Shown here in pieces: positions 12,873 to 64,000 of a DNA stretch of 64,000 bases. The first letter of the stretch is position 1. Every line of letters starts with the position of its first letter. Under the pieces are notes generated by a model. It searched no databases. It was given only the letters and a program-made list of their open reading frames with translations, and was not told the origin of the DNA. The position numbers and the translations under genes are program-made. Source of the stretch: Octopus sinensis (Eukaryota); NCBI RefSeq assembly GCF_006345805.1, contig NW_021833013.1, positions 29,671-93,670 on the forward strand, read 5' to 3'.

Positions 12873-13498
12873 TACATATATACGTGTCTGGCCCCCGTGT
12901 CGGTGGCATGTAAAAGCACCATCCGTTCGTGCCCGTTGCCAGCCTCGCCTGGCCCCCGTGCCAGTGACACGTAAAAGCACCATCCGTTTCGTGGCCGTTT
13001 GCCAGCTCTGTCTGGCCCCCGTGTCGGTGGCATGTAAAAGCACCATCCGTTCGTGTCCGTTGCCAGCCTCGCCTGGCCCCGTGCCGGTGACACGTAAAAG
13101 CACCATCCGTTCGTGGCCGTTCGCCAGCTCCGTCTGGCACCTGTGCGGGTGGCACGTAAAAAACACCCACTACACTCACGGAGTGGTTGGCGTTAGGAAG
13201 GGCATCCAGCTGTAGAAACACTGCCAGATCAGACTGGGCCTGATGAAGCCTTCCAGCTTCACAGACCGCAGTTGAACCGTCCAACCCATGCTAGCATCGA
13301 AAACGGACGCTAATGATGATGATGATGATGATGATGATACGACAGTCTTCTTTCAGTTTCCGCCTACCAAATCCACTCACAAGGCATTGGTCGGTCCGAG
13401 GCTATAGCAGAAGACACTTGCCCAAGGTGCCACGCAGTGGGACTGAACCCGGAACCATGTGGTTGGTTAGCAAGCTACTTACCACACAGCCACTCCTA

Positions 13499-13500
<2 letters not shown>
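12604..13500 (-). mobile_element. Family B SINE split by a family C retroposon
   Basis: Tail half 12604-~12805, (TA)n, family C insert, head half ~13338-13500. Confidence 0.8.
12886..13335 (+). mobile_element. Retroposon family C with internal ~61-bp VNTR and (GAT)n tail; others at ~30705-31115, 33140-33520, 40760-41600(-), 42510-42780, 50935-51310(-), 52100-52500
   Basis: Units TGGCCCCCGTG(C/T)CGGTG(G/A)CA(C/T)GTAAAAGCACCATCCG... at 12889, 12950, 13013, 13074, 13135; common 3' part ending GGACG(C/T)TAA(A)(C/T)GATGATGAT. Confidence 0.85.
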
Positions 13501-13529
<29 letters not shown>

Positions 13530-13656
13530 GTTATTATTATTATTGTTATATTATTATTATTATTATTATTATTTTATTATGTTATTATTATTATTATTAT
13601 TATTATTATATTATTGTTATTATTATTGTTATATATTATTATTATTATTATTATTA

Positions 13657-13697
<41 letters not shown>

Positions 13698-13739
13698 GTT
13701 ATTATTATTATTATATTATTATTATTATTGTTATTATTA

Positions 13740-13815
<76 letters not shown>

Positions 13816-13934
13816 GTTATTATTATTGTTATTATTATTGTTATTATTATTATTATTATATTGTTATTATTATTATTATTGTTATTATTATTATTATTTT
13901 ATTATTATTATTGTTCTTATTATTGTTATTATTA

Positions 13935-13978
<44 letters not shown>

Positions 13979-14227
13979 GTTATTATTATTGTTATTATTA
14001 TTATTATTATTATTGTTATTATTATTTTGTTATTATTATTATTATTGTTATTATTATTGTTATTGTTATTGTTATTATTGTTATAGTTATTATTATTATT
14101 ATTGTTATTATATTGTTATTATTATTATTATTATTATTGTTATTATTATTGTTATTATTATATTATTATTATTGTTATTATTATTATTATTGTTATTATT
14201 ATTGTTATATTATTATTATTATTATTG

Positions 14228-14297
<70 letters not shown>

Positions 14298-14528
14298 GTT
14301 ATTATTATTGTTATTATTATTGTTATTATTATTATTATATTATTGTTATTATTATTGTTATTTTATTATTATTATTATTGTTATTATTATTGTTATTATT
14401 ATTATTATTATTATTGTATTATTTTGTATTATTATTATTATTATTATTGTTATTATTTGTTATTATTATTATTATTATTGTGTTATTATTATTATTATTA
14501 TTATTATTATATTATTGTTATTATTATT

Positions 14529-14560
<32 letters not shown>

Positions 14561-14595
14561 GTTATTATTATTATTATTATTATATATTATTATTA

Positions 14596-14633
<38 letters not shown>

Positions 14634-14682
14634 GTTATTATTATTGTTATATATTATTATTATTATATTATTATTGTTATTA

Positions 14683-14716
<34 letters not shown>

Positions 14717-14778
14717 GTTATTATTATTGTTATTATTATTGTTATTATATATTATTATTATTGTTATTATTATTATTA

Positions 14779-14816
<38 letters not shown>

Positions 14817-14901
14817 GTTATTATTATTGTTATTATTATTGTTATTATTATTGTTATTATTATTATTGTTATTATTATTGTTATTATTATTATTATTATT
14901 A

Positions 14902-14936
<35 letters not shown>

Positions 14937-15098
14937 GTTATTATTATTGTTATTATTATTGTTATTATTATTATTATTATTATTATTGTTATTATTATTA
15001 TTATTATTGTTATTATTATTGTTATTATTATTATTATTATTATTATTGTTATTATTATTATTATTATTATTATTGTTATTATTATTATTATTATTATT

Positions 15099-15130
<32 letters not shown>

Positions 15131-15134
15131 GTTA

Positions 15135-15168
<34 letters not shown>

Positions 15169-15389
15169 GTTATTATTATGTTATTATTATTGTTATTATT
15201 ATTATTATTATTGTTATTATTATTGTTATTATTATATTATTATTATTGTTATTATTATTGTTATTATTATTATTATTATTATTGTTATTATTATTGTTAT
15301 TATTATTATTATTATTATTGTTATTATTATTGTTATTATTATTATTATTATTATTGTTATTATTATTGTTATTATTATTATTATTATTA

Positions 15390-15427
<38 letters not shown>

Positions 15428-15622
15428 GTTTATTATTGTTATTATTATGGTTATTATTATTATTATTATTGTTATTATTATTGTTATTATTATTATTATT
15501 ATTGTTATTATTATTGTTATTATTATTATTATTATTGTTATTATTATTATTATTGTTTTATTATTATTGTTATTATTATTATTATTATTATTGGTATTAT
15601 TATTATTATTATTATATTATTA

Positions 15623-15657
<35 letters not shown>

Positions 15658-15878
15658 TATTGTTATTATTATTGTTATTATTATTGTTATTATTATTATT
15701 ATTATTATTGTTATTATTATTATTATTGTTATTATTATTATTATTATATTATTATTATGTTATTATTATTTTTTTTGTTATTATTATTATATTATTATTA
15801 TTATTATTATTATTGTTATTATTATTGTTATTATTATTGTTATTATTATTATTATTATTATTGTTATTATTATTATTA

Positions 15879-15916
<38 letters not shown>

Positions 15917-16016
15917 GTTATTATTATTGTTATTATTATTGTTATTATTATTATTATTATTATTGTTATTATTATTATTATTGTTATTATTATTGTTATT
16001 ATTATTATTATTATTA

Positions 16017-16054
<38 letters not shown>

Positions 16055-16224
16055 GTTATTATTATTGTTATTATTATTGTTATTATTATTATTATTATTA
16101 TTGTTTATTATTATTGTTATTATTATTATTATTATTATGTTATTATTATTGTTATTATTATTATTATTATTATTGTATTATTATATTATTGTTATTATTA
16201 TTGTTATTATTATTATTATTATTA

Positions 16225-16256
<32 letters not shown>

Positions 16257-16263
16257 GTTATTA

Positions 16264-16294
<31 letters not shown>

Positions 16295-16515
16295 GTTATT
16301 ATTATTGTTATTATTATTGTTATTATTATTATTATTATTATGTTTTATTATTGTTATATTATTATTATTATTATTGTTTATTATTATTGTTATTATTATT
16401 ATTATTATTATTGTTATTATTATTGTTATTATTATTATTATTATTGTTATTATTGTTATTATATTATTATATTATGTTATTATTATTGTTATTATTATTA
16501 TTATTATTATTGTTA

Positions 16516-16546
<31 letters not shown>

Positions 16547-16718
16547 GTTATTATTATTGTTATTATTATTGTTATTATTATTATTATTATTATTGTTATT
16601 ATTATTGTTATTATTATTATTATTATTATTGTTATTATTATTGTTATTATTATTATTATTATTATTGTTATTATTATTATTATTGTTATTATTATTGTTA
16701 TTATTATTATTATTATTA

Positions 16719-16792
<74 letters not shown>

Positions 16793-16854
16793 GTTATTAT
16801 TATTGTTATTATTATTGTTATTATTATTATTATTATTATTGTTTATTATTATTA

Positions 16855-16891
<37 letters not shown>

Positions 16892-17045
16892 GTTATTATT
16901 ATTGTTATTATTATTGTTATTATTATTATTATTATTATTGTTATTATTATTATTATTGTTATTATTATTGTTATTATTATTATTATTATTATTGTTATTA
17001 TTATTATTATTGTTATTATTATTGTTATTATTATTATTATTATTA

Positions 17046-17086
<41 letters not shown>

Positions 17087-17087
17087 G

Positions 17088-17121
<34 letters not shown>

Positions 17122-17125
17122 GTTA

Positions 17126-17196
<71 letters not shown>

Positions 17197-17267
17197 GTTA
17201 TTATTATTGTTATTATTATTGTTATTATTATTATTATTATTATTGTTATTATTATTATTATTATTGA
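13500..17267. repeat. ~3.8-kb (TTA)n microsatellite with interspersed TTG
   Basis: Direct inspection; source of three spurious >1000-aa ORFs. Confidence 0.98.
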
Positions 17268-17574
17268 GTAGGTTATGTTGAAAATAAGGCAAAAGTGGGC
17301 ATTACGTTTATATCACCTGATGTGGATCATTCAAATTGATGTTGTCGTTGTTGTTGCTATTATTGATGATGTTCTTTCCTATTGTCACATGTTTTTTTAG
17401 CTGTTGTAAAAAATTACATCTTCGCATTTGCTTGTTTTGTTGTTATATTCCCCCCCCCCTATGTGTGTTTATTCAACAGACTTTTCTTCACCTTCCTTCC
17501 TTCCTTTCTTTCTTTCTTTCCTTCACTTTCCTGCAACCCTAATCTTTTTTCTTTCAGGTGTTATGAAATGCATA

Positions 17575-36227: not shown

Positions 36228-37500
36228 GAACAAACTTACTTAGAAATGGATGTGTGCGTTCTGTTGTGTAATAACAAATTAATAAATAAAACATATGCAT
36301 ATATACATACTTATATGTACGTACCTACCTCTACATGTATATATACATGCATATATGGGTACAGGACACCAAAAAAAAATCGAACACAATGAGAAACGAA
36401 AACATAAACACAAAACCAAGGAACTGGACATTTTTTTTAAACAAAGAAAAAATGGAGTCCAGGACAAACAATACAAGGAAAATTCCCCTGCTTCAGCCGC
36501 CATGGTTTCATCTACTCTGTGTTTCGAAGATGATACACATACATGCATTGATATATCAGGCTGTCCCATAAGTAACGTCCAGACTTCTATATTTTCAATC
36601 TATAAACGCTTTAACAGTATTGTAGAATGTCTGATGGCACCAAGTAATATTTGTATTTATTTAGACATACTCTTTTACTTGTTTCAGTCATTTGACTGCG
36701 GCCATGCTGGAGCACCGCCTTTAGTCGAGCAAATCGACCCCGGGACTTATTCTTTGTAAGCCCAGTACTTATTCTATCGTTCTCTTTTGCCAAACCGCTA
36801 AGTGATGGGGACGTAAACACACCAGCATCGGTTATCAAGCAATGCTAGGGGGACAAACTAAGACACACAAACATACATGCACACACATATATATATATAC
36901 ATATATACGACGGGCTTCTTTCAGTTTCCGTCTACCAAATCCACTCACAAGGCTTTGGTCGGCCCGAGGCTATAGTAGAAGACACTTGCCCAAGGTGCCA
37001 TGCAGTGGGACTGAACCCGGAACCATGTGGTTGGTAAACCAGCTACTTACCACACAGCCACTCCTGCGCCCATATATGTATAAATACATGCATATATGGG
37101 TACAGGATACCAAAAAAAAATGCTGAACACAATGAAAACACAAACACAAAAACACAGAAACTAACCTTTTTCCGAACAACATAAAAACACCCCCAGAGAA
37201 ACGAGACACGCAACATAAAGAATATCCCCCTTCTTCAGTTGTCCCTGTTTCAACTATTCCACATTTCTAAGGCAAGGACAAGATGCGACTTCATTGAAAC
37301 AGTCCTTCCCGCAAAGCAAATTAAATGAAATTTGGGATTTTTTGTGGAGGGGTAAAAGTGTTAACAAGAACAGGACAGTGAGAACAAAACAGTAAAAGCA
37401 AACGGTGAGGGCTAAGCCCCTAGTTCCATGCCGTGGGAATGAACCTGAAGCGATTTCATTGGGAAGCAAATTTTTTTTACCTATACAGCCAAGCCAAACA

Positions 37501-37532
<32 letters not shown>

Positions 37533-37583
37533 TCAATTTGTTTCTCTCTTTCACTCTTTCTTTCTTTCTCTCTCTTCGTCCAG

Positions 37584-37780
37584 CTCAGAGCCTGTCGTCA
37601 TCAACCAATTCCAGTGCCGGACCCTCGTCGCCAACTTCCTGTTCCACACCCGTCGACCTCTGGCAGAGACTCACCATGTTCATCAGTGACAACCAGAACC
37701 TCAACATTCCGGCTACCACTGACGCTGTCTCTCTCAGTGGCAGCGGCGACCCGTCCGAATTTAGTAAAGATCCATCTTGA
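37584..37780 (+). CDS. Terminal coding exon, same gene
   Basis: Long pyrimidine tract + ccAG|; phase-1 frame AQSLSSSTNSSAGPSSPTSCSTPVDLWQRLTMFISDNQNLNIPATTDAVSLSGSGDPSEFSKDPS, TGA at 37778-37780. Confidence 0.8.
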
Positions 37781-38954
37781 AGTCAAAAGAAGGAAGAAAG
37801 AAAGAAAGAAGCAACAACACTGGAGACCTCAACGTGCATCTCTACATTTCTTCCCCTTCTTTCTTTGTTTTTTGTTTGGTATTCTGTGTTGAGAAGGGTT
37901 TAGTGTGGTGGCGGGTAAACTGGATCTCAGGTCTCTGTCTCTAAGCCCTCCCCCATTTTTGCCTCATCACCTATCACATTACTGCTGCTACTACTACTAC
38001 TACTCACCACTTACAGACACACTATGAACCGTTAAGGGTGGTATGTCCTGTGCAGTGTGTTTGGACTGAACTGTATTAGATTCAGAATTGTTTTGTGCAT
38101 ATCACAGATTCTTTGACCGACATTCCCTGCTTCCACCACCGCTGCCTCCTCCGCCACCATCCCCCTTGCCCCCCCCCCCCCCGGCCCCCTTAGTGCTTCC
38201 TCGCCATCTGCACCCTCGTCCCCCCACCCCTTCTGTTTAACCTGCCCATACTGACAATCATGGCCCACCACAGATTCTTCGTTGACGGACACTGCGCCAG
38301 TTTGTTCAACCAATTTTAAGATTTGGCAAAAAGATACACTTACACAAACCTACGGTGACAACACACACGTGTGTGTACACACACACACACACACACACAC
38401 ACATGCATATAAACACATACACACTTGTGATTATGGAATTCTTTACACTGTGATATATATGTGCCTCTGTGTTTACATGTGTGTATATATATATATGTAT
38501 GTATATATCTGCCTATATACATATATGTATGTGTGTACATGTAGATAATTGTTATTTGTAATTATAACGAGAATTGTATATCAATACAGAATCTTATTTT
38601 TCCTTTGTTGTTGTTGTTGTTCTTTGTTGAATATTCTTTTATTTGTGTTTATCAAACGCTTCACCCGAGCCATCAGCATCGAGAGAGGTTTGGCTCCTGT
38701 TCCTGATGGCTTAACTCTGTATGTAGAACAAAATTAGATGTCAGCCTCTGGTTTCATATCCGTATGGAAAATGAGCACTTCTTGGATCGGCTAAACCTCC
38801 TTCAAACACTACTATTCTGTGTGTGTGTGTGAGAGAGAGAGAGAGGTCCTGTGACATCCTAACAGATACCTATATCTATCTGGTTTATCTATCTGGATGT
38901 TAAACGTTATTAAAAGACATAATGATAATCATCCCTTTAAAAAAAGAGAGAGAA

Positions 38955-39500
38955 ATATTAACAACAACAATAATAATGATAATGATAATAATAATAATAA
39001 TGATGATGATGATGATGATGATAATAATGATGATAATAATAATAATGATAATAATAATAATGATGATGATAATAATAAAAATAATAATAATGATGATGAT
39101 GATAATAATAATGATAATGATAAAAATAATAATGATAATAATAATGATGATGATGATGATAATAATAATGATAATAATGATGATGATAATAATAATAATG
39201 ATAATGATGATGATGATGATAATAATGATGATAATAATAATAATAATAATGATAATAATAAAAATGATAATAATGATGATGATGATAATAATGATGATAA
39301 TGATGATAATAATAATGATGATGATAATAATGATGATAATAATAACAATGATAATAATAATAATGATGATAATAATAACGATAATAATAAAAATGATAAT
39401 AATAATAATGATAATAATAATAATGATAATGATAATAATAAAAATGATAAAAATAATAATGATAAAAATAATGATAATAATAATAATGATAATAATAATA
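38955..39500. repeat. (AAT)/(GAT) compound microsatellite
   Basis: Direct inspection; ~1.2 kb downstream of the host-gene stop. Confidence 0.95.
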
Positions 39501-40545
39501 ATTTTTCTACTTTAGCTACAAGGCCTGAAAGTTAGAGGGAGGGGCAAATTGATTAGATTGACTCCAGTACACAACTGGTCTCTTCTTGTCAGGTATCCCA
39601 GATGAACCAACTTCACGGCAGGAGGTGCAGATGAGGGCAGCTGCATCGAACTCTCTCATGCACCAAAGGCAATTGCTAAAAAGCATTCGTGAAGTAAAAC
39701 CATGTAGCAACACCAAATGGCGGTGCCCCAGCATGGCCACAGCCCGTGAGCGGAAACTAGAATCAATCAATCAATCAATCAAACTGGTATTTAATTTATC
39801 AACGTTGAAAGGATGAAAAGTAAAATTGACTCCAACGGCATTTGAACTCAGAGCCTGAAGACAGTCGGTGTGCTGCAAAACATATCAGCTGGCATGCTAG
39901 TGATTCTGCCAGCTCACCACCCTAATGATAAGAGTAGTAATAATAATCCTCAAACAAACCTTATTGAGGGACCTTTTCACTGAGATGGGCTGTTCGACCC
40001 AGAGAATATTCTAAGTGGACCTCACCGGCAAGGTCCTGTGCTGTTTACCTTGAAATAAGATTACCATGTCGTGCATTTGTGGTTGTGATGCATGTGCCTG
40101 GTGTACCCTTATCAGACGGGTTGTCATGATGGGTATACTGGGTTTCGTATATTTGTCTCCCAGTGTCACTTTGATGGCATGCTCTGCTCCCTCACTCAAT
40201 AATAATGGTTTCAGATTTTGCCACAAGGGCAGCCATTTTAGGGGAGGTGATGGGTCGGTTACATCCACCCCAGTGAGTTGCAAGCTTTAAATAATGGCTT
40301 TCAAACTGGAAAAAAAAGTATGTTTAAATTTTTTTTTCTTTTCTTTCTTTTTCTTCTCTGATAATATTTATATGCGATCAAATGTTTGGAGGTCTGGTGT
40401 TATGCATAAAGTCGTTGACTCAAATTTGATGTCTGTTCTCTGATCAATGTTTCTTATCTCTGTCTTAATTACATTTGAGAACTTCTTTTTGGCAGTCTTG
40501 TAAACCCTTTTGTTCCATAAAAAGAGGCAAAAATTATTTCTTACC

Positions 40546-46231: not shown

Positions 46232-46810
46232 TTGTAGGGGTGACCAGGAACCCTGCTGGTTTTCTTCAACGTTTCCTAACCCAGGATGGGTGATGGGTTC
46301 ATCACTTTGAGCCAGGAACAAAGGGACAGTCCATGCATTGGAAACCCAGCCTCACCTGCTCCAAAGAAGGACAAGGTCGTTTCACCAACATGAAAGGCGA
46401 TGGCCTCACTGTTTTGTGATATATATTGACCATCTCAAAAAGGGCCAAAACCACCAACGGAGAGTGCTTTGCCACCTCCCTAAAGCAGTTGTGGAATGCT
46501 CTCAAGACCAAATGCCAAGGAAAACTGAAGAATGGGGAATTGTTTCATCAAGACAATGCTCCAGCACACAAGTCCTTCGTTTCTATGGTTGCCGTGCGTG
46601 ACTGTGGCTTTGAACAGGTTAATCGCCCTCCCTATTCTCCTGATTTGGCCCCATCTGATCCCCAACATGAAATAACATTTGGCTGGGAACCAGTATCGCA
46701 GTGATGATGATGTCATATCTTCTGTTGATGCCTTTTTTTTTTGTTGTTGCTCAACAGGATGAGCGCTTCTTCAGCAAACGGAGCCAAGCACTGCAACACC
46801 AAAGGGATGA
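46232..46810 (+). pseudogene. Mariner (DD34D) transposase relic
   Basis: FLQRFLTQDG*WVHHFEP, FHQDNAPAH, PPYSPDLAPSD; contains stops and frameshifts. Confidence 0.9.
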
Positions 46811-54749: not shown

Positions 54750-56050
54750 CCACTAAATTCAAAAATCACATTCATTTTTACCTAACATCGATAGTTATTT
54801 ATTTATTCCTAATTTCATATTTGCTCGTTATATTTGTAACTTTTCTCTACAGCACTTTGTTAGTTCAATCTATTCTAGTATTGTAAGGATAATTACACAA
54901 CATTTAGTAATTTTTCATTTATTGAAAAGTATTTAGGAAGTATAATATTAATTACAACAAAAAGAAACAATAAAACTCTGCACTGTAAATGCCTTGATAA
55001 CTCTTTTCTTAAGATGAGAAGTGCTTTGACGATAGAGATTTTCTAGAGTGTATACCTTCATCTCTTCTGACTAGAGACCATATATAATCTCCCATCATAG
55101 CAGTATCCCATCGTCCTTGGTATCTTCGTTCCATAGTTGCGACGTCCTGATTAAATCTCTCACCATGATCCTCACTTCATGGCATTTCCAGTTCACAGAT
55201 GTCTTGCAGTCTTCCCCCAGTAGATCCATCCATTCCTTCAACCTTGATGAAACAAGTTCAACTCCTGACTTAGTAAGACCCAGATCCCTGATTAAATCAT
55301 CTAGCTCACTCTGATTTGGAAGGTGAGGCTCTGAAGTCGTTCATGGTACGAAAGCTTCCGCCATTTCTTGGCTTCTACTACTTGTTGACTCTTCAGATGA
55401 AATATTTTCTGGTGGTAGTGGTACTCGTAAACTGTCAGGTGCTCTAGATGATGGTATGTCTGGACACTGAAGAGATTGTCTTCTTTTCACTTTTCTGTAC
55501 TTTGTCACATAGATCATACAAAAGTAACAGTAATCGTGATGGTTCTTTGGCTCTCTCCATACCCTTGGAATGGCAAAAGGCATTGACCTTCCTGGACCTC
55601 TTAACCATCATTCTAGAGTAGACTGACAGCTTCCACATATCACATGTGGGGGCCCGTGGTTTGTCCTAGTTACCCATGGGCATTCCGAAATCGTCTGTAC
55701 GCTATCCACAATTTGGCACCTTTCACAATCTTATGTAATACCTGCTTTTTTCCAATATAATAACCACACACATAGCAAAATGTATCTGGAGAATTTTTAC
55801 ATATTCTAGAAGCCATCCTGAAAGTAGCACAACTTAGTAATTGGTCTGAAAGGGAAAATTAGACATACATTAGTTAGCGGAACATTATAACAATACCGAA
55901 TATATAATAACATTGAAAGTCGACATATTTTTTTAACTGTTGATGAGACACAAAAAATAATTTCATTTTTGGAATCAGCAGAAAAAATAGATTGATAAAC
56001 AATAAAAAAAATACAATTAACAAATTTTTTTGAAAATTGTTACGTTGTGT
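54750..56050 (-). mobile_element. Chapaev3-like (CMC) DNA transposon, internally deleted; transposase remnant 55816-55009
   Basis: MASRICKNSPDTFCYVCG, MPFAIPRVWREPKNHHDYCYFC, QSELDDLIRDLGLTK, then directly SEDHGERFNQDVATMERRYQGRW. Family assignment is from remembered motifs; ends approximate. Confidence 0.7.
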
Positions 56051-58348
56051 AATTGATCTTTTTCTTCTTTCAATCAATGAAATATTTTTTTTTACTGATT
56101 TTGATTTTAATATTAAACTTTGTATATAAATGGAATTGTTCTGGTGATTTCATTTCTATTTTATATCTTGAAGCAAACAAGAAGAATTGTTTAAATATTA
56201 AACAATTTGGTGACAACATATATTTTCTCTCTCAGCACATCTTTATCCTACATCAACATTTTAATGTGCAATGCATTAAATATGTTTTCTCACCATCTTC
56301 GATATTATTTATCAGATGGATGGCTTCTGGGAAATATTTCACATTGTCTGCATTTAATATAAACTCTATTACAAACCAACAACAAGGTCCCCCCCAAAAA
56401 TGCCCTTAAAAACATATTAGATAATAACACATTGGTGAGGTCATGGCTAGAATGTCTGACTATAGGGTGACTAGATAAGAATTAACTTTCATCAACAGAA
56501 GCCATAATTTTAATTGATTTTAAACAAATATATTTGTTACATTTCAAATATAATTTTTATAAAAATAATTTTAATATTTCAACTTTATAAATTGTATTCT
56601 GACATTATAAAAGTTAAACATCCTATTAAATTTAAAAAGATTATAGTTTTGATATATTTTTATAAATTACATTTAAATATTGTATTTGAAGGAATAATCT
56701 ATGTTATAATTTGGTAAATTCAGAAATATTCTTGGAGATTTGTGTGGAATTATCAGCTTGGTTGAGAAATAGAATAGTGATGGTTTTTTTATAGAAACCA
56801 GAAAATGTAACTTCAGGCAAGATATTCTCTGGAAAGTGGGGGTAAAATGATGATGATCATACATACATACAGACGTATGGATGTATAAATATACATATGT
56901 GCATCTTCTTTCTTTGTCTATATATTATACACATTCATTCATATATATGTATGCATGTGTATATAAATACAAACACAATTAGATTAAAGTCTATATAATT
57001 ATATGAGGGTTTTGTAGGTTTTTCTTCCCCAAAATAAACCAAGTAGAATGGCACAAATGAAACATAAACATTCATTCCAATTTAATTTTACAATGGAAAT
57101 ATTTTCAATTATCTGCCTTTCTCTTTATAAACTTTGTTGCCTACAACAACAGCAATAACAACAACATATCCTTATCCAGCTTTTCCCCAAAAATATGTTG
57201 TTGTTTAGTCCATGTATATTCAAAGAGCTGACATCCTGAAGAAGGTCTCTTTTACTTTTCATTCCTCCTGGGGTCAATAGAGTAACAGTCATTATTTCAT
57301 AGACCAAGGAGGGGTGGAGGATCATTCTGATAATGATGGGTCACCACAATGTCATTAAACACCCCCACCAATATTACCTAATCCACCTCATTAAACCCCC
57401 AATACTTCATAATAAACTACACCAAGTTATAACTCCTCACCTGACACAAAACAAAACACACTTCACCTGCCAAACCCCTTTTCATACAACACATCTTTCT
57501 CATTGCTACCCAAACATTGTCCTTATATTAAGATAATTAAGATGAACCTACCTTCATTAATTGGGCTTATTCATTAACCAATCTTTATTAATCTCAATTA
57601 GCAACAAATAATAACGATCCTCTCAACATGCTGTCTATCAGTGTGATTATATGAAAGCCCATCTTTGGATAAGCTTTCCGAGTTAATCATGTTGTGTATG
57701 ATATTGTGTGGATTATATTGAAATGTCCAGAGATTTACACATCATTGTCAGGTTAAGAACAGTTTCATCTCCAGCTTTATTCGTATCTGTGAATCCAGGT
57801 AAATATGATGGAAACCAAGCCAACCATGACTGTCCCATCATTAGTAATACTTGTATCTGACAAATGTCTATGAAACCTAATAAAGTCTATGTTTTGCTAA
57901 TTGTTCCATGTTAACGAAGTTTGAACATGATTGCTGTGTGTTGGGACATAATATAGCATGTACACCAATTAAAGTTAATTTTCTCTACAGCTTAGAGTGT
58001 CTCGTTATTGAGTGCTTTTGGAGCAGGGGAATCTCTTTGACTAATTATCGTTAAATAAATCTAAGCCACACATGACTATTTCTTTGTGATGTTGAGAGCA
58101 AATATCATTTCCAGTGAAAATAATTATTTCTAATATTTAGACTCCATGTAATTAATGACACTATTAATACATCTTAGAATAGATTGTAATAAGTTGTTTA
58201 AATATTAATTAGACAAGATTAATTAACTGACAGAAATACATAAATGTTTTGTTTGTGTTTTTCAAATGATGAAGCAAACATCATCTCCCTGAAACTTTAA
58301 TATTTTCACAAGCTAAATGTTTTCCTTATATTTCTTTACAGATTCACT

Positions 58349-61300
58349 ATGGAAGTCCAAAATACTTTAAGAAAACTTACCCCTCAGAAAAGAGCTTTAA
58401 GGAACTCGACACCAAAGGGGATAAAGAAGAGTTGAGAAGAAAAGGTGTAATATGAGAAGAGATGACGGTTCAAGGAGAGAAATATCCGAGAAACGATCTT
58501 CATCTCAGCCAACAACAAAACAAAAAAGACATAAAGGAGACCCTAAAACTGGAAATAATGGGAAGACGAAATATTTTGGACAAACACATATTTTATACAA
58601 GATTCAATGCCTATGAGGACAAAATTGATTTGTTGATAATTCTCGGAAAGAAATATGTACTTTTAAAAAGAATAGGAATGGATGAAAATACTTTTCTAAA
58701 CATTTTACACAGAGAATAGAAATTTTTCAGAAAAACATTAAGGAATACATTTACAGCCAAGACTTTACTATGTTTGGAAAACTGGAATTATTTTTGGAAA
58801 ACTATTTAAAGACAAATGTTTTACAAGACAAACACAAAACCATTGGACCACCAAAAGTAACCACAAAATTTCGGCCTCTTCGACCAGTTGTGACCAGAGA
58901 AGCAAAGGTAGAAGTATCTGGTGAAGACTTAAGCAACCCAGTATCCAATATTGTTGTCATACAAGGGGGTATTGTAACATATTCCCGCCATTGTATGACA
59001 ATATGTTGCATAACAAGAGATGGCAACAGAAATGAAGTTCATTGCTCATCTTCCGTCACTGATTTTACCAGAATCAGTGAAGACACAGTCCTCGCCACCC
59101 TCCCATTTCGAAAGATGATTCTTATTATCAACCCTTTAAGTTTGGAAATCAAAAGATTCAGCTAGGATTAATCTTGGTTTCTTATTTGGAACATTCTACG
59201 CTTATAGTGTAGAACTGTTTGGTCGGACCATATACGTCATTGACTGGGAAGAGAATAGAATAAAATACGAATTCATAACCAAGAAACCCCTTCAGATATT
59301 GCTGTAGGAGCACAAAACAAACTCTTAGTATCCTTTTCCAATATAACAGGGTTACCTGTTACAATGTGGATGGCCAGCAGTTATTTGAGGTGGATACCAA
59401 TTCCCTGGACATTCCAAGCCACATCTCTGTGTACCAAAACCATTTTTATGTCCTCCAGGGACATATTATTTATCGGATTTCAGGTACAGGTGCTGTGACA
59501 ACAAGAGAAATTGGCATGAAATCCGCCATATTTCTGTTGGCAAAGAAAACATTTTTGTAACCGATTATTTTGATGTCCTTCATATCATTGGAACAAATGA
59601 AGACTTTTGGCTCAGGCAGTCATATAACCACCAGCTATGGACCCCAACATTGTACACTATATTTATATTGAGGATTGCTACAACATTACTGAATATCCTA
59701 CCTATGTCTACATCTTCTATATTAATATTCTACAAGAATAAAAAGCTATATTATTCACTGAGACTGGAGAAATAATTAACCAAAATAATTCAACTTGCCT
59801 TGAGATTCCTTCTTGCTTTTGTAGAATGAATTCTAAAGGATTTCTGGTGTTTTACCGTGAAAACAAAGAATTTCAGTATATCACATGCCCTGGGCTAATG
59901 AAAGGCCCTTTAATGAAAGTCCATACTGATTACATTAAACTATGTCATATTGTATCAAATAAGTGTTTATCTCTAACCACAAATGGAAACAAACATGAGG
60001 TCCATATCCTCTTGATCAAGGATGATAAAGTTGACATTGCAGAAAGAATTTCTCTGGGACATCATAATGTCAGCATTGCTGCAACTCCAATTAATTTTGT
60101 AGTCGTAGATGGAAGCGAAAATAAAATGGTATTTTATTCCACATGTGGTGAAGAACTTTTTCAAAAATACCTTCCATTCTATGGCTACCCTCATCACATC
60201 TACTCTGATAATGTTTATTTCTATGTCCTCTTCAGGAGACACTCTATTCTCAGATGTTACGATCTATATGGAGAAATGAAATGGCAGTGGGAACTGCCTT
60301 CCCTGTTCACCCTCACATTGCTGTTTTCCAAGGAACTCTTTATGTCCGGACACTCAACTCAACAGGGTTCTTCTTTACAAGAATCAAGACCGGTCGTCTG
60401 GCTGTTGTTTACACACGAAAAATCCTTACATCAGAAATCTAAATCTACGACTCAAAGAAAAGAAGAATGACCAAAAACTTGTCATTGGCGAAATATGTAA
60501 TCTGTCCAACGGACAGTTGGTGGTGTCTGACATCAAGCATGATTGCTTGTTGTACATTTCTCAGGAAGGAGACATTGTGTCCAGATTATCTCTGCCGTCT
60601 ACAGCTACAGATATATGTCGATGGGATTCTAATCATATAGGGGTCACATTGCCTCTACAGAAACAATTAAGGGTCATCGGAAACCTATCAAAGACAGTGA
60701 GAAGTGTATCATTAAGGCAGCCTTATGTACGGGTGTGTAAGATGGGTGAAGGTGAAATTGTTTGTTATTGTGATAAACCATCACATTTAGACATTTTAGC
60801 CATCAATTATTATAATCAAGTTGAAGTAATTAAGACAATTAATATCCCTGTTTTTGTGAAATCATTATCAATAGACAAGAAAACAGAAAAGCTATTAATT
60901 GTTACTAAGGAAAAAGCTTTTCAGTACAACACTAGAATAGGTGGTGGTGGTCATGGCGGTCGTCAAATGGTCCCCAGTGTTTTAATGTCCCAAGTGAAAC
61001 GTCCCCTCAGTCTCCAAGGTGGATCTATTGACCAAACGTCTGTTTATCTGATAGACAGAAGCCGTATGTTTGCCATAAACGATCAGAATTTGTTGGTTAA
61101 TGATCTCGTTACTAATAATCAACTTAATTATTATATCGACCTGGTGGATGTATTTTCCAGAAACATTTCTCTCAGTGAAATTTTGTCTTCCACTTTATAT
61201 CTACAGGACCTGACAGTTTCTGATAAAGCCAGACATATTCCTCTCCCTAAACATTTGGGAGACAAAGAACCAGCGGAGATTATATCTTTGGTTCTTACTG

Positions 61301-63692
61301 AAAATAATCTGATTGCAGGATGTGACGAGAGTAATGGAAACATTAAGATATTGACATTGGATGGTCACATTTTGGATTCAATCAAAGTGAATGTTTATGG
61401 AGATATTAAAATGTGTCGATGGCAGTCAAACACACTGGTCATTATGAATAGGGATCTTTATAATAAACCCCAACTGTTGACATTAAAAGTGGAATTTCCA
61501 TTGTTGTTGGTAATTTACCAAACGAAAAATAATTATGATTGTGTGACTTCTTTATCAAACAATCAACTGGTTTTTAGTAAATGGGGAGATGGAGGTCATT
61601 TGTATTTTGTTGATATTGATGAAATACATTCGAGTGTGAAGGAAATAAAAAAAATAGACATACCTGAACCATTAATAAGGAGAAAAGAAGATGGAAATTA
61701 TTTTGATAGAATCATGGATATTAAAGTTACTGATGAAGATGTCATCATTGTCTTCAACATGAGATTCATCATTTTCTTTAACAGTGGTGGTCAATATTTA
61801 CATTCAGTTAGACATTACATGAAGTATTTTGGCGATGATGATGACAGGATGACAATTGATGATAGTTTTTTGTACATTTATGGTCAGTGGGAGAAATGTT
61901 TAGCTTTCTCAAGATATAAAAACATTTTGTGTTTGACCCAGAATGGGGAATACAAGAGAATATTTTTAAATGAAAGAATTTATCAAGATGAAGTAGATTT
62001 CTCCAGTATAGACTGTAAAGGACCAAGGTTTGTTGGAAGCCCCTGGAGGGGAGAAAGGAATGAATTGTATGTTGAAGGGTTGTTTATGGTGAATCGAGAC
62101 AGCTTCCCGGTTGCTCGTTTACAAACAGACGAATGTCCTGTTCAAGTAAAAGATTTTGATGTCTCTGAGGAAGGAAAGACAGTTGTGTGTGAAAAAGCCA
62201 ATAATGGAAATGTTAAAATATTCGATGAAGACGGCCAGTTGCTATGTCACAGAAATGTTGCAAGTTTAGTTGGTGGTGTGTTTTACACAAGAATCACACA
62301 TAATGGCCACGGTTCCTAAAAGGAAAGAAATATTTCAACTGAATGGAGAAGATTTGCAGACATCTCAAGTTTGTCGAGTCTCATCCCTTATGGTGTAATA
62401 TGGAGAAAAGTGGCGGGTATTTACTGGTGTGTACATAATGAATTGATTGAATGTCATTGCATAAAGATTGATGGGGACCAAGTGAACATTCTGGAATCTG
62501 TGTCATTATAATCTTGATTCTGGTCTTCGTTTCCCTTCCATTACATCTGAAACGAACAAGGAAATATTCAGTAATGAATTAATTAATAAATTGGAATACA
62601 GAGGAGGAGATGGAGATGGAGGAAGAAGAAGAGGTAAATCAGGTGAAATAATTGGTAAAGGTAGATTAAAGGTGAGATGTGGTAATTACATAGCGGAGAA
62701 TAATTCAGGAATTGATGAAATATCAGTGTGGAGACTTCCATATAGGACAGCAATGGTCCCTTTTTCCATTCCTGCATTCGAGGAACCTGTTGATTATGAT
62801 TATTGGGACATTAGGGACCGGAATAGTAAACTAATTAAGTTAGATGAGAATGTGAGTGTGTTGATGTTTCGAGAAAGTGTCACATTAATCAGAACAACAA
62901 CAACAACAGTGGACATACTTCAACATGAACAACAACAACGACCACCACTGGACATATGTCGGTGGACAGAGGAATGTTTCATTGTCGCCTTTGGGAGAGA
63001 AATGAGGGTCTTTAACAGGGATCTCCATCGTTTAAAAACCATCAGAACTGAGAAATACTACAACAGGATTTATAAATACAACGACAATCAACTCGTGTGT
63101 GGTGGTCATTATATTAGAGACATAACTCAAGAAGAGAGACACAAGAAATACCAAAGAATATGGAGAAACAACAAGGATTACTATTTTTGCAAAGACCCCA
63201 ACATCTTTAACTCTTATTATGTGGATGTGGTTGATATCAAAGATGGGAAATGTAAAGATGAAGTGTGTCGTGGGAAATGGGGAGATAGGAAGGTTGGAGG
63301 GAGATGAAGGGGTGGATGATGTGGGAGTCACATCTTTTGGTGATGTTGTTGTTGTGAGGAGGGAGATGGAGAGAAGGGGTTGGAGATGGGAGTTTGTGTT
63401 TTGTGGAATGGTTCAGGGAAAAGTCTTTGGTGAGGAGGATAAGAATAAAGGAGGAATGTTTTATGGTCTGGGATATTATATTCCAAGACCTCGTCTGACC
63501 ATAATTGGTGAATGTGTTTATATAACAGATTTAATAAACAATATTTACGAAATACCTCGACATATTGAAGAGGAAACATCTGAAGATTATGAAATCCTGG
63601 GATTAAAGATAATCCAAAATATTTACTCCTCAGTGAGGATGATAATGAAGTCTTTGATGTTCTTGGCTTGGATGTTTCAGAAAATTCTTTGA
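58349..63692 (+). CDS. Large single-exon gene (or recent pseudogene) for a multi-NHL/beta-propeller protein, broken by many small frameshifts
   Basis: Acceptor tttctttacAG at 58340-58341 followed by ATG at 58349. Consecutive ORFs (58462, 58770, 59366, 59826, 60517, 62591, 63219) are joined by short frame changes. NHL-like blades include PSDIAVGAQNKLLVSF, ICNLSNGQLVVSD and ATDICRWDSNHIGVTLP. The interval has no SINEs or microsatellites. Confidence 0.65.
60517..62319 (+). CDS. Longest intact segment (600 aa) of the beta-propeller locus
   Basis: Uninterrupted non-repetitive ORF with repeated beta-strand blades and CRW motifs at 60610-60624 and 61408-61422. Confidence 0.8.
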   Translation: MVVSDIKHDCLLYISQEGDIVSRLSLPSTATDICRWDSNHIGVTLPLQKQLRVIGNLSKTVRSVSLRQPYVRVCKMGEGEIVCYCDKPSHLDILAINYYNQVEVIKTINIPVFVKSLSIDKKTEKLLIVTKEKAFQYNTRIGGGGHGGRQMVPSVLMSQVKRPLSLQGGSIDQTSVYLIDRSRMFAINDQNLLVNDLVTNNQLNYYIDLVDVFSRNISLSEILSSTLYLQDLTVSDKARHIPLPKHLGDKEPAEIISLVLTENNLIAGCDESNGNIKILTLDGHILDSIKVNVYGDIKMCRWQSNTLVIMNRDLYNKPQLLTLKVEFPLLLVIYQTKNNYDCVTSLSNNQLVFSKWGDGGHLYFVDIDEIHSSVKEIKKIDIPEPLIRRKEDGNYFDRIMDIKVTDEDVIIVFNMRFIIFFNSGGQYLHSVRHYMKYFGDDDDRMTIDDSFLYIYGQWEKCLAFSRYKNILCLTQNGEYKRIFLNERIYQDEVDFSSIDCKGPRFVGSPWRGERNELYVEGLFMVNRDSFPVARLQTDECPVQVKDFDVSEEGKTVVCEKANNGNVKIFDEDGQLLCHRNVASLVGGVFYTRITHNGHGS

Positions 63693-64000
63693 TGGTTTTT
63701 GGAATTATTCCTGGACGTCAATCTTTTGCTTTCTTTTATTTTGACAAATAAATATTTCCAGAAATATTAAACTTCAATCTTCTTCTTCTTATTGTTGTTG
63801 TTGTTGTAAATGGCTTCGCCCAGGAATCGAACCTGCATCGCATACATTGCATTCTACACATTAACACTTAGTGTTGTAACATTCCTCAACACTCTCTTTT
63901 GTGTGTGTATATTTATATACAGTATATGTACATGTTTTATATATATACACACATATTTAGGAATGTATGTATAGAAATAAGGCTATAAGTATGTATGTTT

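Follow-up and report, generated by a model that had tools for sequence, protein, structure and literature searches.

A clustered octopod gene family encoding six predicted NHL-type propellers, with sequence variation concentrated on one face of propeller 4

Introduction

The window, a 64,000-nucleotide stretch of the Octopus sinensis genome (contig NW_021833013.1, positions 29,671 to 93,670 of the forward strand, assembly GCF_006345805.1), contains on its plus strand at 58349–63751 a region that resembles coding sequence but has no long open reading frame; its longest plus-strand piece measures 679 codons from stop to stop. The locus raises the question of whether this region is one gene, and what its product might do. 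It corresponds to a single coding exon, approximately 1,800 codons long and interrupted by about 20 frame breaks of one or two bases. The predicted product has a helical N-terminal domain and six NHL-type propellers, and sequence searches place it in a family restricted to octopods, namely three Octopus species and Argonauta. The new observations are that variation among the copies is concentrated on the top face of propeller 4 and, more weakly, of propeller 6, and that the trees of individual modules conflict. Whether the family is an octopod-specific, tandemly expanded cytosolic repertoire of diversifying variable receptors, with propeller 4 as the main binding site and probably directed against invaders, we consider evenly balanced. 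The first-pass annotation of the window had recognised a lineage-specific protein with tandem NHL-like propellers, which agrees with our results, and had missed the dozens of clustered paralogs, the shuffled modules, and the probable origin of the frame breaks in assembly errors.

Extent of the gene

Full-length paralogs of about 1,790 residues align colinearly over positions 58343–63748 without an intron-sized gap, and because these relatives align in order across the stretch, its pieces belong to one gene. Separate genes for the segments were considered and rejected, as all segments fall in order on single full-length proteins. The gene starts with ATG at 58349 and ends with TAA at 63749–63751, and reading through the window copy with X at the breaks gives 1,807 residues. 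The first-pass annotation had placed the end at 63692, a stop of the wrong frame, and its estimate of about 1,750 residues was too low. Its description of roughly 5.3 kb of coding-like sequence as one gene was correct, but the frame is not open, with 23 breaks relative to paralog P0017. The frameshift-aware alignment that it proposed was carried out against four paralogs; it recovered one coding exon and provided the count of breaks.

The coding part is thus a single exon, as had been claimed, but the gene is probably not intronless. A polypyrimidine tract followed by AG, resembling a splice acceptor, is located at 58320–58341 (AG at 58340–58341), eight nucleotides before the ATG. If the site is used as its sequence suggests, the transcript of the window copy probably includes an upstream exon. 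Several paralog gene models join differing upstream pieces at the acceptor-like point. Contigs of both DNA runs cover the flank at 58200–58341 deeply, and it is therefore duplicated with the exon or repeated elsewhere. None of the contigs guessed to be RNA covers 58200–58386, which by itself carries no information. At the 3′ end (63747–63777), AATAAA at 63747–63752 overlaps the stop codon. A contig of public run X5, which we guess to be an RNA run, ends in a loose stretch of 22 A behind position 63777, 25 nucleotides after AATAAA. The window has no A run at this place, which indicates that some near-identical copy, or the window copy itself, is polyadenylated. None of the listed holders of the stretch is recorded as RNA, which does not bear on expression.

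Predicted structure of the protein

Structures were predicted by AlphaFold for two natural paralog models: P0025, which extends from the N-terminus to most of propeller 4 (mean predicted local distance difference test score (pLDDT) 69.5), and P0048, which contains the N-terminus and propellers 4–6 (mean pLDDT 66.0). Both models have a disordered tail, four helices, and then propellers, which bears out the earlier description of a charged and then helical N-terminus. The structure prediction suggested in the first-pass annotation for counting propellers gives six, of which five are six-bladed, one of them with a poorly modelled blade, and one is four-bladed. Comparison of the sequence profile with itself gives a period of approximately 260–290 residues; no DNA-level repeat was found between the propellers.

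The charged, predicted disordered tail comprises residues 1–71 (58349–58557), and in both paralog models residues 1–90 have pLDDT values below 50. The small helical domain that follows (58558–58820) has four predicted helices with pLDDT values of about 55–69 and is present in several diverged types among the paralogs. This four-helix segment of about 90 residues, with a pLDDT of about 60, is all that was seen in place of the long coiled coil of TRIM-NHL proteins, and judging from the models it could be a remnant of one. No family was assigned to the domain, which gave no usable Atlas match; it was not searched alone.

Propeller 1 (58929–59592) has six blades, exists in two main types in close paralogs, and matches the NHL domain of TRIM3 with a Z-score of 20.9 and a root-mean-square deviation (rmsd) of 3.0 over 228 aligned residues. 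The six blades of propeller 2 (59667–60381) match the NHL domain of Brat (Z 21.8, rmsd 3.3, 250 aligned). The conserved propeller 3 (60466–61203) has five modelled blades; its sixth blade has low confidence in the model and was assigned from the sequence pattern. By language-model features its nearest neighbours are NHL clusters, several of them mostly molluscan (score 0.90–0.92). Propeller 4 (61261–62076) has six blades and a hypervariable, aromatic-rich top face, and the Brat NHL domain ranks first for it among 48,161 chains (Z 23.3, rmsd 3.6, 253 aligned). Propeller 5 (62128–62741) is reduced in the AlphaFold paralog model to three blades, a low-confidence insert of about 50 residues with one helix, and one more blade; it is almost invariant in close paralogs. 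Being the most conserved module, it may form an open half-ring that packs on a neighbour. The most divergent family member seems, by eye, to share this layout of four blades with a helical insert. Propeller 6 (62810–63748) has six blades with variable top loops and aligns over its full length with six-bladed folds (Z 17–18). The recurring motif (D/K)(I/M)CRW is located at the exact positions first reported, as DICRW at 60610 in propeller 3, KMCRW at 61408 in propeller 4, and DICRW at 62951 in propeller 6.

The NHL domains of Brat, Mei-P26, TRIM2, TRIM3, TRIM71, and Thin lead the structural matches to propellers 1, 2, and 4 (Z 20–23, rmsd 3.0–3.6), with residue identities to the matched domains of 10–14%. 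The sequence search for NHL with hidden Markov models, which had been proposed as a check, did not detect the domain: Pfam NHL (PF01436) was found in none of 28 family members at E-values up to 0.05 and in none of seven window fragments. No Pfam family exceeded the threshold in these 28 members and seven fragments, and DUF4934 appeared weakly in nine members. A sequence profile search of the PDB gave nothing below an E-value of 0.08, and only weak matches to TRIM71 at 0.2–0.8. The reported lack of a recognisable RING or B-box was confirmed, as no such pattern is present in the first 300 residues of any of 83 proteins, and no RING or B-box family was detected in the 28 members, in 114 upstream open reading frames, or among the 109 plus-strand open reading frames of at least 55 residues that were searched for upstream exons; a RING exon of the window copy may still lie beyond the window or be shorter than 55 codons. 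A simple hydropathy scan of the window read-through and 10 paralogs identified neither a signal peptide nor a membrane segment; the N-termini are hydrophilic, and the highest hydropathy over 19 residues is 1.4–1.8.

TRIM-NHL proteins (Brat, Mei-P26, LIN-41/TRIM71, TRIM2/3, and Thin) likewise have a six-bladed NHL propeller with the closing strand contributed from the N-terminal side. Their architecture, as described in part of PMC9634614, combines RING, B-box, and coiled coil with one NHL domain. In contrast, the octopod proteins have six propellers encoded by one exon, lack RING and B-box, and differ from the TRIM-NHL domains in the low identity and missing Pfam matches given above. The octopod proteins would act like a multiplied NHL binding module, but since RING and B-box are absent they are not TRIM-NHL proteins. 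Molluscan TRIM-like NHL proteins usually carry B-boxes and one propeller. They are represented by the unnamed Atlas clusters close to propeller 3 in language-model features, whereas at the sequence level the octopod family has no match outside octopods. Several six-bladed propellers in a row are also found in LRP/megalin (YWTD) and teneurin (NHL), which are among the top Foldseek matches and reach Z 17–20 in structural alignment. However, these are extracellular membrane receptors with EGF spacers, unlike the octopod proteins with their lack of signal peptide and membrane segment.

Variation of propeller faces among paralogs

The modules of the window copy differ in their similarity to close paralogs. 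Typical identities are 93–96% for propeller 3 and 94–100% for propeller 5, in contrast to 58–84% for propeller 4 and 65–88% for propeller 6; the identities of the N-terminal region range from 14 to 85% across paralogs. The loops were divided into top (b–c and d–a) and bottom (a–b and c–d) according to strand order, a rule that reflects standard propeller geometry. Among 22 close sequences, the diversity of propeller 4 is 0.40 in top loops and 0.09 in bottom loops (loop-level permutation p 5e-5), and that of propeller 6 is 0.28 and 0.15 (p 0.03, uncorrected for six tests). Top and bottom loops of propellers 1, 2, 3, and 5 do not differ in the same sequences (p 0.36–0.92).

At the level of individual sites, 17 similar copies of propeller 4 have 39 positions occupied by at least five different residues. 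Thirty-six of these are in top loops, three are in strands, and none is among the 68 bottom-loop positions; the diversity in this set is 0.357 for top and 0.064 for bottom loops. In propeller 6, 18 of 23 such positions are on the top, a number affected by one strand that was mapped too long, so that two variable sites were counted as strand. Propellers 1, 2, 3, and 5 have none. The top faces of propellers 4 and 6 carry 10–19 aromatic residues, and their net charge changes sign among close paralogs, ranging from −5 to +11. In a comparison at the protein level, the amino-acid pattern on these two faces is consistent with that of positively selected receptor expansions.

The variable loops could instead be unconstrained, with the expansion representing neutral copy-number drift of a structural scaffold that is homogenised by gene conversion. 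Long loops tolerate change, the near-identity of propeller 5 could stem from conversion, and many models in the cluster described below are fragmentary, with 13 of 62 covering all six modules. Nevertheless, the variation is limited to one face in two of the six propellers, where it includes positions at strand starts, the exchanges are rich in W, Y, R, and D, and the site-level top value of propeller 4 is five to six times that of its bottom loops. We regard neutral drift as quite improbable.

The first-pass annotation had proposed a recognition or lectin-like scaffold. The face-specific hypervariability supports recognition indirectly, but a lectin is not specifically supported: there is no signal peptide, TRIM-NHL domains are first for propeller 4 (Z 21–23), and fucose lectins match propeller 6 only (Z 17.2–17.7, identity 4–7%), level with a sialidase.

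Exchange of modules between copies

Types of the N-terminal region and of propeller 1 are found in all combinations. Approximately unbiased (AU) tests, run on 16 sequences of full length, rejected 41 of the 42 trees taken from another module, and propeller 1 conflicts with propellers 4 and 6 at 100% support. In the tree of the N-terminal region, the window copy falls with P0017, P0019, and P0021, and the tree of propeller 1 places it with the same three proteins plus P0003 and P0014 (100%). In the trees of propellers 4 and 6, it groups with P0003, P0008, P0009, P0010, and P0014, and not with P0017 (100%). The conflicting trees point to recombination or conversion between copies.

Range and genomic organization of the family

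A search among longer proteins returned 44 matches of 1,099–3,135 residues with identities of 45–92%, and every one of them bears the name of Octopus vulgaris, O. sinensis, or O. bimaculoides. When 1.84 billion representatives were searched exhaustively, the matches ended after 21. Four of these already carried Octopus names, and nine others proved to be from Octopus or Argonauta; of 10 proteins that were looked up, nine are from Octopus and one is from Argonauta hians. Non-octopod relatives were found neither among short proteins with a 48-sequence profile (seven matches: six Octopus and one unnamed fragment) nor with the most divergent member as the query (39 matches: 38 Octopus and one unnamed), in word-seeded searches that can miss distant relatives in squid or cuttlefish.

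The paralog count and clustering recommended in the first-pass annotation revealed dozens of clustered copies. In O. vulgaris, one sequence of 29,193,250 bp carries 62 family models, a lower bound obtained from the 20 clusters that were opened; 59 of the models match P0017, propeller 3 is included in 40, and 13 extend over all six modules. Older members occur as isolated genes on other chromosomes, and close orthologs of them have been retained in three Octopus species. A tree built from propellers 3 and 5 (46 of 50 rows, four having been dropped for gaps; the divergent pair P0051/P0064 chosen as the outgroup) places the window copy on a short branch within a recent burst of copies named O. 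vulgaris. The published O. vulgaris chromosome assembly is, according to part of PMC10700109, based on polished nanopore reads, and the O. vulgaris family models presumably derive from it.

Some family members have unusual structures. In P0010 and P0007, C2H2 zinc fingers or transposon-like sequence are fused to the family exon at the acceptor site. A genuine zinc-finger or transposon-derived N-terminus was rejected, as each occurs once (P0010 and P0007, respectively), and the fusions, treated as model fusions, are probably prediction artefacts that suggest the presence of zinc-finger genes within the cluster. P0048, P0061, and P0045 miss whole internal modules, and in P0061 propeller 3 is joined directly to the corresponding blade of propeller 6; such models may represent real module deletions or predicted introns that bridge errors. 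P0078, from independent data, has an uninterrupted full-length frame of 1,687 residues on a 7,179-base contig and is 85% identical to the divergent P0051. In the subfamily of P0039 and P0040, an acidic tandem repeat is inserted near the C-terminus of propeller 6.

Possible function of the family

The usual signature of a recognition repertoire shaped by conflict combines a constant part with a variable binding face, tandem expansion, exchange of modules, and many broken copies. Parts of PMC8195603 describe Branchiostoma death-fold adaptors with variable propellers diversified by recombination, which were proposed to be sensors of invaders. Because of this signature and the Branchiostoma parallel, we read the octopod family as putative cytosolic variable receptors. 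The DED-TRADD-N-WD40 expansions of Branchiostoma and those of Crassostrea are likewise lineage-specific and have variable, recombining propellers. However, within the same parts of PMC8195603 they combine WD40 propellers with death-fold or TRADD-N domains, whereas the octopod proteins have six tandem NHL-type propellers and an unassigned helical N-terminus; TRADD-N proteins are given there as few or absent in cephalopods.

The proposal starts from the fold, the family range, the clustering, the face-specific variability, the conflict of module trees, and the polyadenylated family transcript. A TRIM-like NHL domain would have multiplied internally, with loss of RING and B-box, to give the helical N-terminal domain followed by six NHL-type propellers. 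Each paralog would then bind a different intracellular ligand, which might be a protein, RNA, or glycan, mainly by the top face of propeller 4 and less by that of propeller 6. The binding site of NHL domains is the top face, according to part of PMC9634614. The near-invariant propellers 3 and 5 would form a constant core, packing within the protein or contacting a common host partner. The repertoire would arise by birth and death, through duplication, recombination between neighbouring copies, and loss, and the likeliest driver would be conflict with invaders such as a virus, an intracellular parasite, or a mobile element. A more specific version is a combinatorial intracellular receptor repertoire, in which dozens of clustered single-exon genes offer propellers 4 and 6 as antibody-like variable surfaces under positive selection, propellers 3 and 5 are constant, and germline recombination swaps whole modules; we hold it only tentatively, as somewhat less probable than not.

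Several points weigh against a repertoire of variable receptors. The faces were assigned from strand order and not from coordinates, and top loops are longer than bottom loops (123 and 68 positions in propeller 4, and 136 and 85 in propeller 6) in a comparison that was not length-matched; relaxed constraint on the long top loops could also be a source of the variation. The models have mean pLDDT values of 66–70 and predicted template modelling scores of 0.37 and 0.56, and they do not predict how the propellers are placed with respect to one another. The AU tests also reject trees over poorly resolved short branches, and chimeric gene models may be involved. The paralog sequences were predicted automatically, and some are clearly fused (P0002 of two copies; P0007 and P0010 with foreign N-termini), so that part of the mosaicism could be chimerism of models or assembly. 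No known effector domain was found attached to the family proteins, and a literature search by family gene identifiers found no ligand, tissue, or infection data.

The propellers could alternatively bind RNA in a sequence- or structure-specific manner, as Brat and LIN-41 do, and regulate host mRNAs, for example in neurons or the germline, with a different RNA for each paralog. RNA-binding NHL domains are the best structural matches, new RNA specificities evolve quickly in NHL domains according to part of PMC5908797, and the top face of propeller 4 is aromatic-rich, with a strongly basic charge of +9 to +11 in some paralogs. However, the basic face is not conserved: its charge falls to −5 in the window copy and to −10 in that of Argonauta. 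Propellers 1, 3, and 5 are near neutral, and identity to the RNA-binding domains is 10–14%. Diversity of this kind is also not normally driven by host RNA targets, and we consider host RNA regulation rather unlikely.

Families engaged in reproductive or intragenomic conflict often expand fast in tandem, have one coding exon, and are confined to a lineage. The same variability data would apply if the octopod proteins had a germline-restricted, gamete, or meiotic-drive role rather than one in pathogen defence. The older single-copy members kept across three Octopus species suggest a stable ancestral role, and we consider reproductive or intragenomic conflict improbable.

Little is known about immunity in cephalopods, and the octopus gene expansions that are well described relate to the nervous system. 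A combinatorial repertoire of the kind outlined above would add to cephalopod immunity, or to defence against transposons, an arm not yet described. The cluster of at least 40 unannotated genes with a putative variable binding face offers a concrete candidate system for diversified recognition inside octopus cells, and its defined modules can be expressed and tested one by one. The family is apparently undescribed, with a new architecture of a known domain. The literature searched contained neither a description of the family nor the six-NHL-propeller architecture, although supplements or the 2015 octopus genome paper may list family genes. Six family gene identifiers gave no papers, and 12 are absent from three of the four supplementary files of PMC9712504. 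No mention of NHL or propellers was found in part of the text of PMC9068888, and the family was not found in parts of PMC10700109, PMC12513265, PMC8382680, and bioRxiv 10.1101/2024.05.23.594666. The absence of Pfam matches and the breaks, which are probably assembly errors, may explain why the family went unnoticed.

State of the window copy

The frame breaks are located near 58419, 58430, 58551, 58637, 58665, 58697, 59158, 59208, 59282, 59344, 59523, 59655, 59691, 59741, 60301, 60345, 62278, 62373, and 62509, with about four more between 63278 and 63616. The 23 breaks relative to P0017 comprise 20 of deletion type and three of insertion type, the last few being ambiguous in a divergent region; 18 were counted relative to P0003, 18 relative to P0009, and 21 relative to P0027. 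No in-frame stop occurs against P0017 or P0009; P0003 and P0027 each give a single one, located in the N-terminal part, in which these two proteins differ. Contigs of four public runs hold extra bases at 10 of the break places, among 12 listed of 34 indel rows; of the other two listed, one is upstream of the ATG and one is in frame. The short-read contigs pool many copies and are thus evidence that the family, and not the window copy itself, is in frame.

The window copy by itself could be a true pseudogene with genuine frame breaks. No public run contains more than 41% of the words of the stretch and no listed piece spans it, so that the contigs may derive from other copies; broken models are frequent in the family, and only 8 of the 10 bases put back extend a run, where chance alone would give about 0.5, which is a weak point. 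However, 3–10 substitutions per indel would be expected to produce 3–10 stops, and the probability of observing none, as relative to P0017 and P0009, is 0.045 to <0.001. Furthermore, propeller 5 contains three breaks, yet none of its 212 residues differs from P0013, deletions make up nearly all breaks, and the terminal branch of the window copy is short (0.011). A pseudogene is unlikely; we consider it likely that the breaks are long-read assembly errors, and the gene is real and probably intact in the animal. The central 640 codons (60346–62277) are free of breaks, with about 16 before and about seven after them, a spread that fits patchy polishing.

Other features of the window

A broken coding-like remnant without a Pfam match is located on the minus strand at 55095–55810, 2.5 kb upstream of the gene, and we take it to resemble a DNA transposon. 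A fragment of a mariner-like transposase is found at 46420–46701 (DDE_3, E-value 3e-4, below the curated cut-off). Long low-complexity trinucleotide arrays occupy 13300–17300 and 38900–39530, the first extending over about 4 kb at 5% GC. A Ser/Thr-rich, exon-like frame at 37424–37780 has no Pfam match and may belong to the small-exon gene that the first-pass annotation placed upstream.

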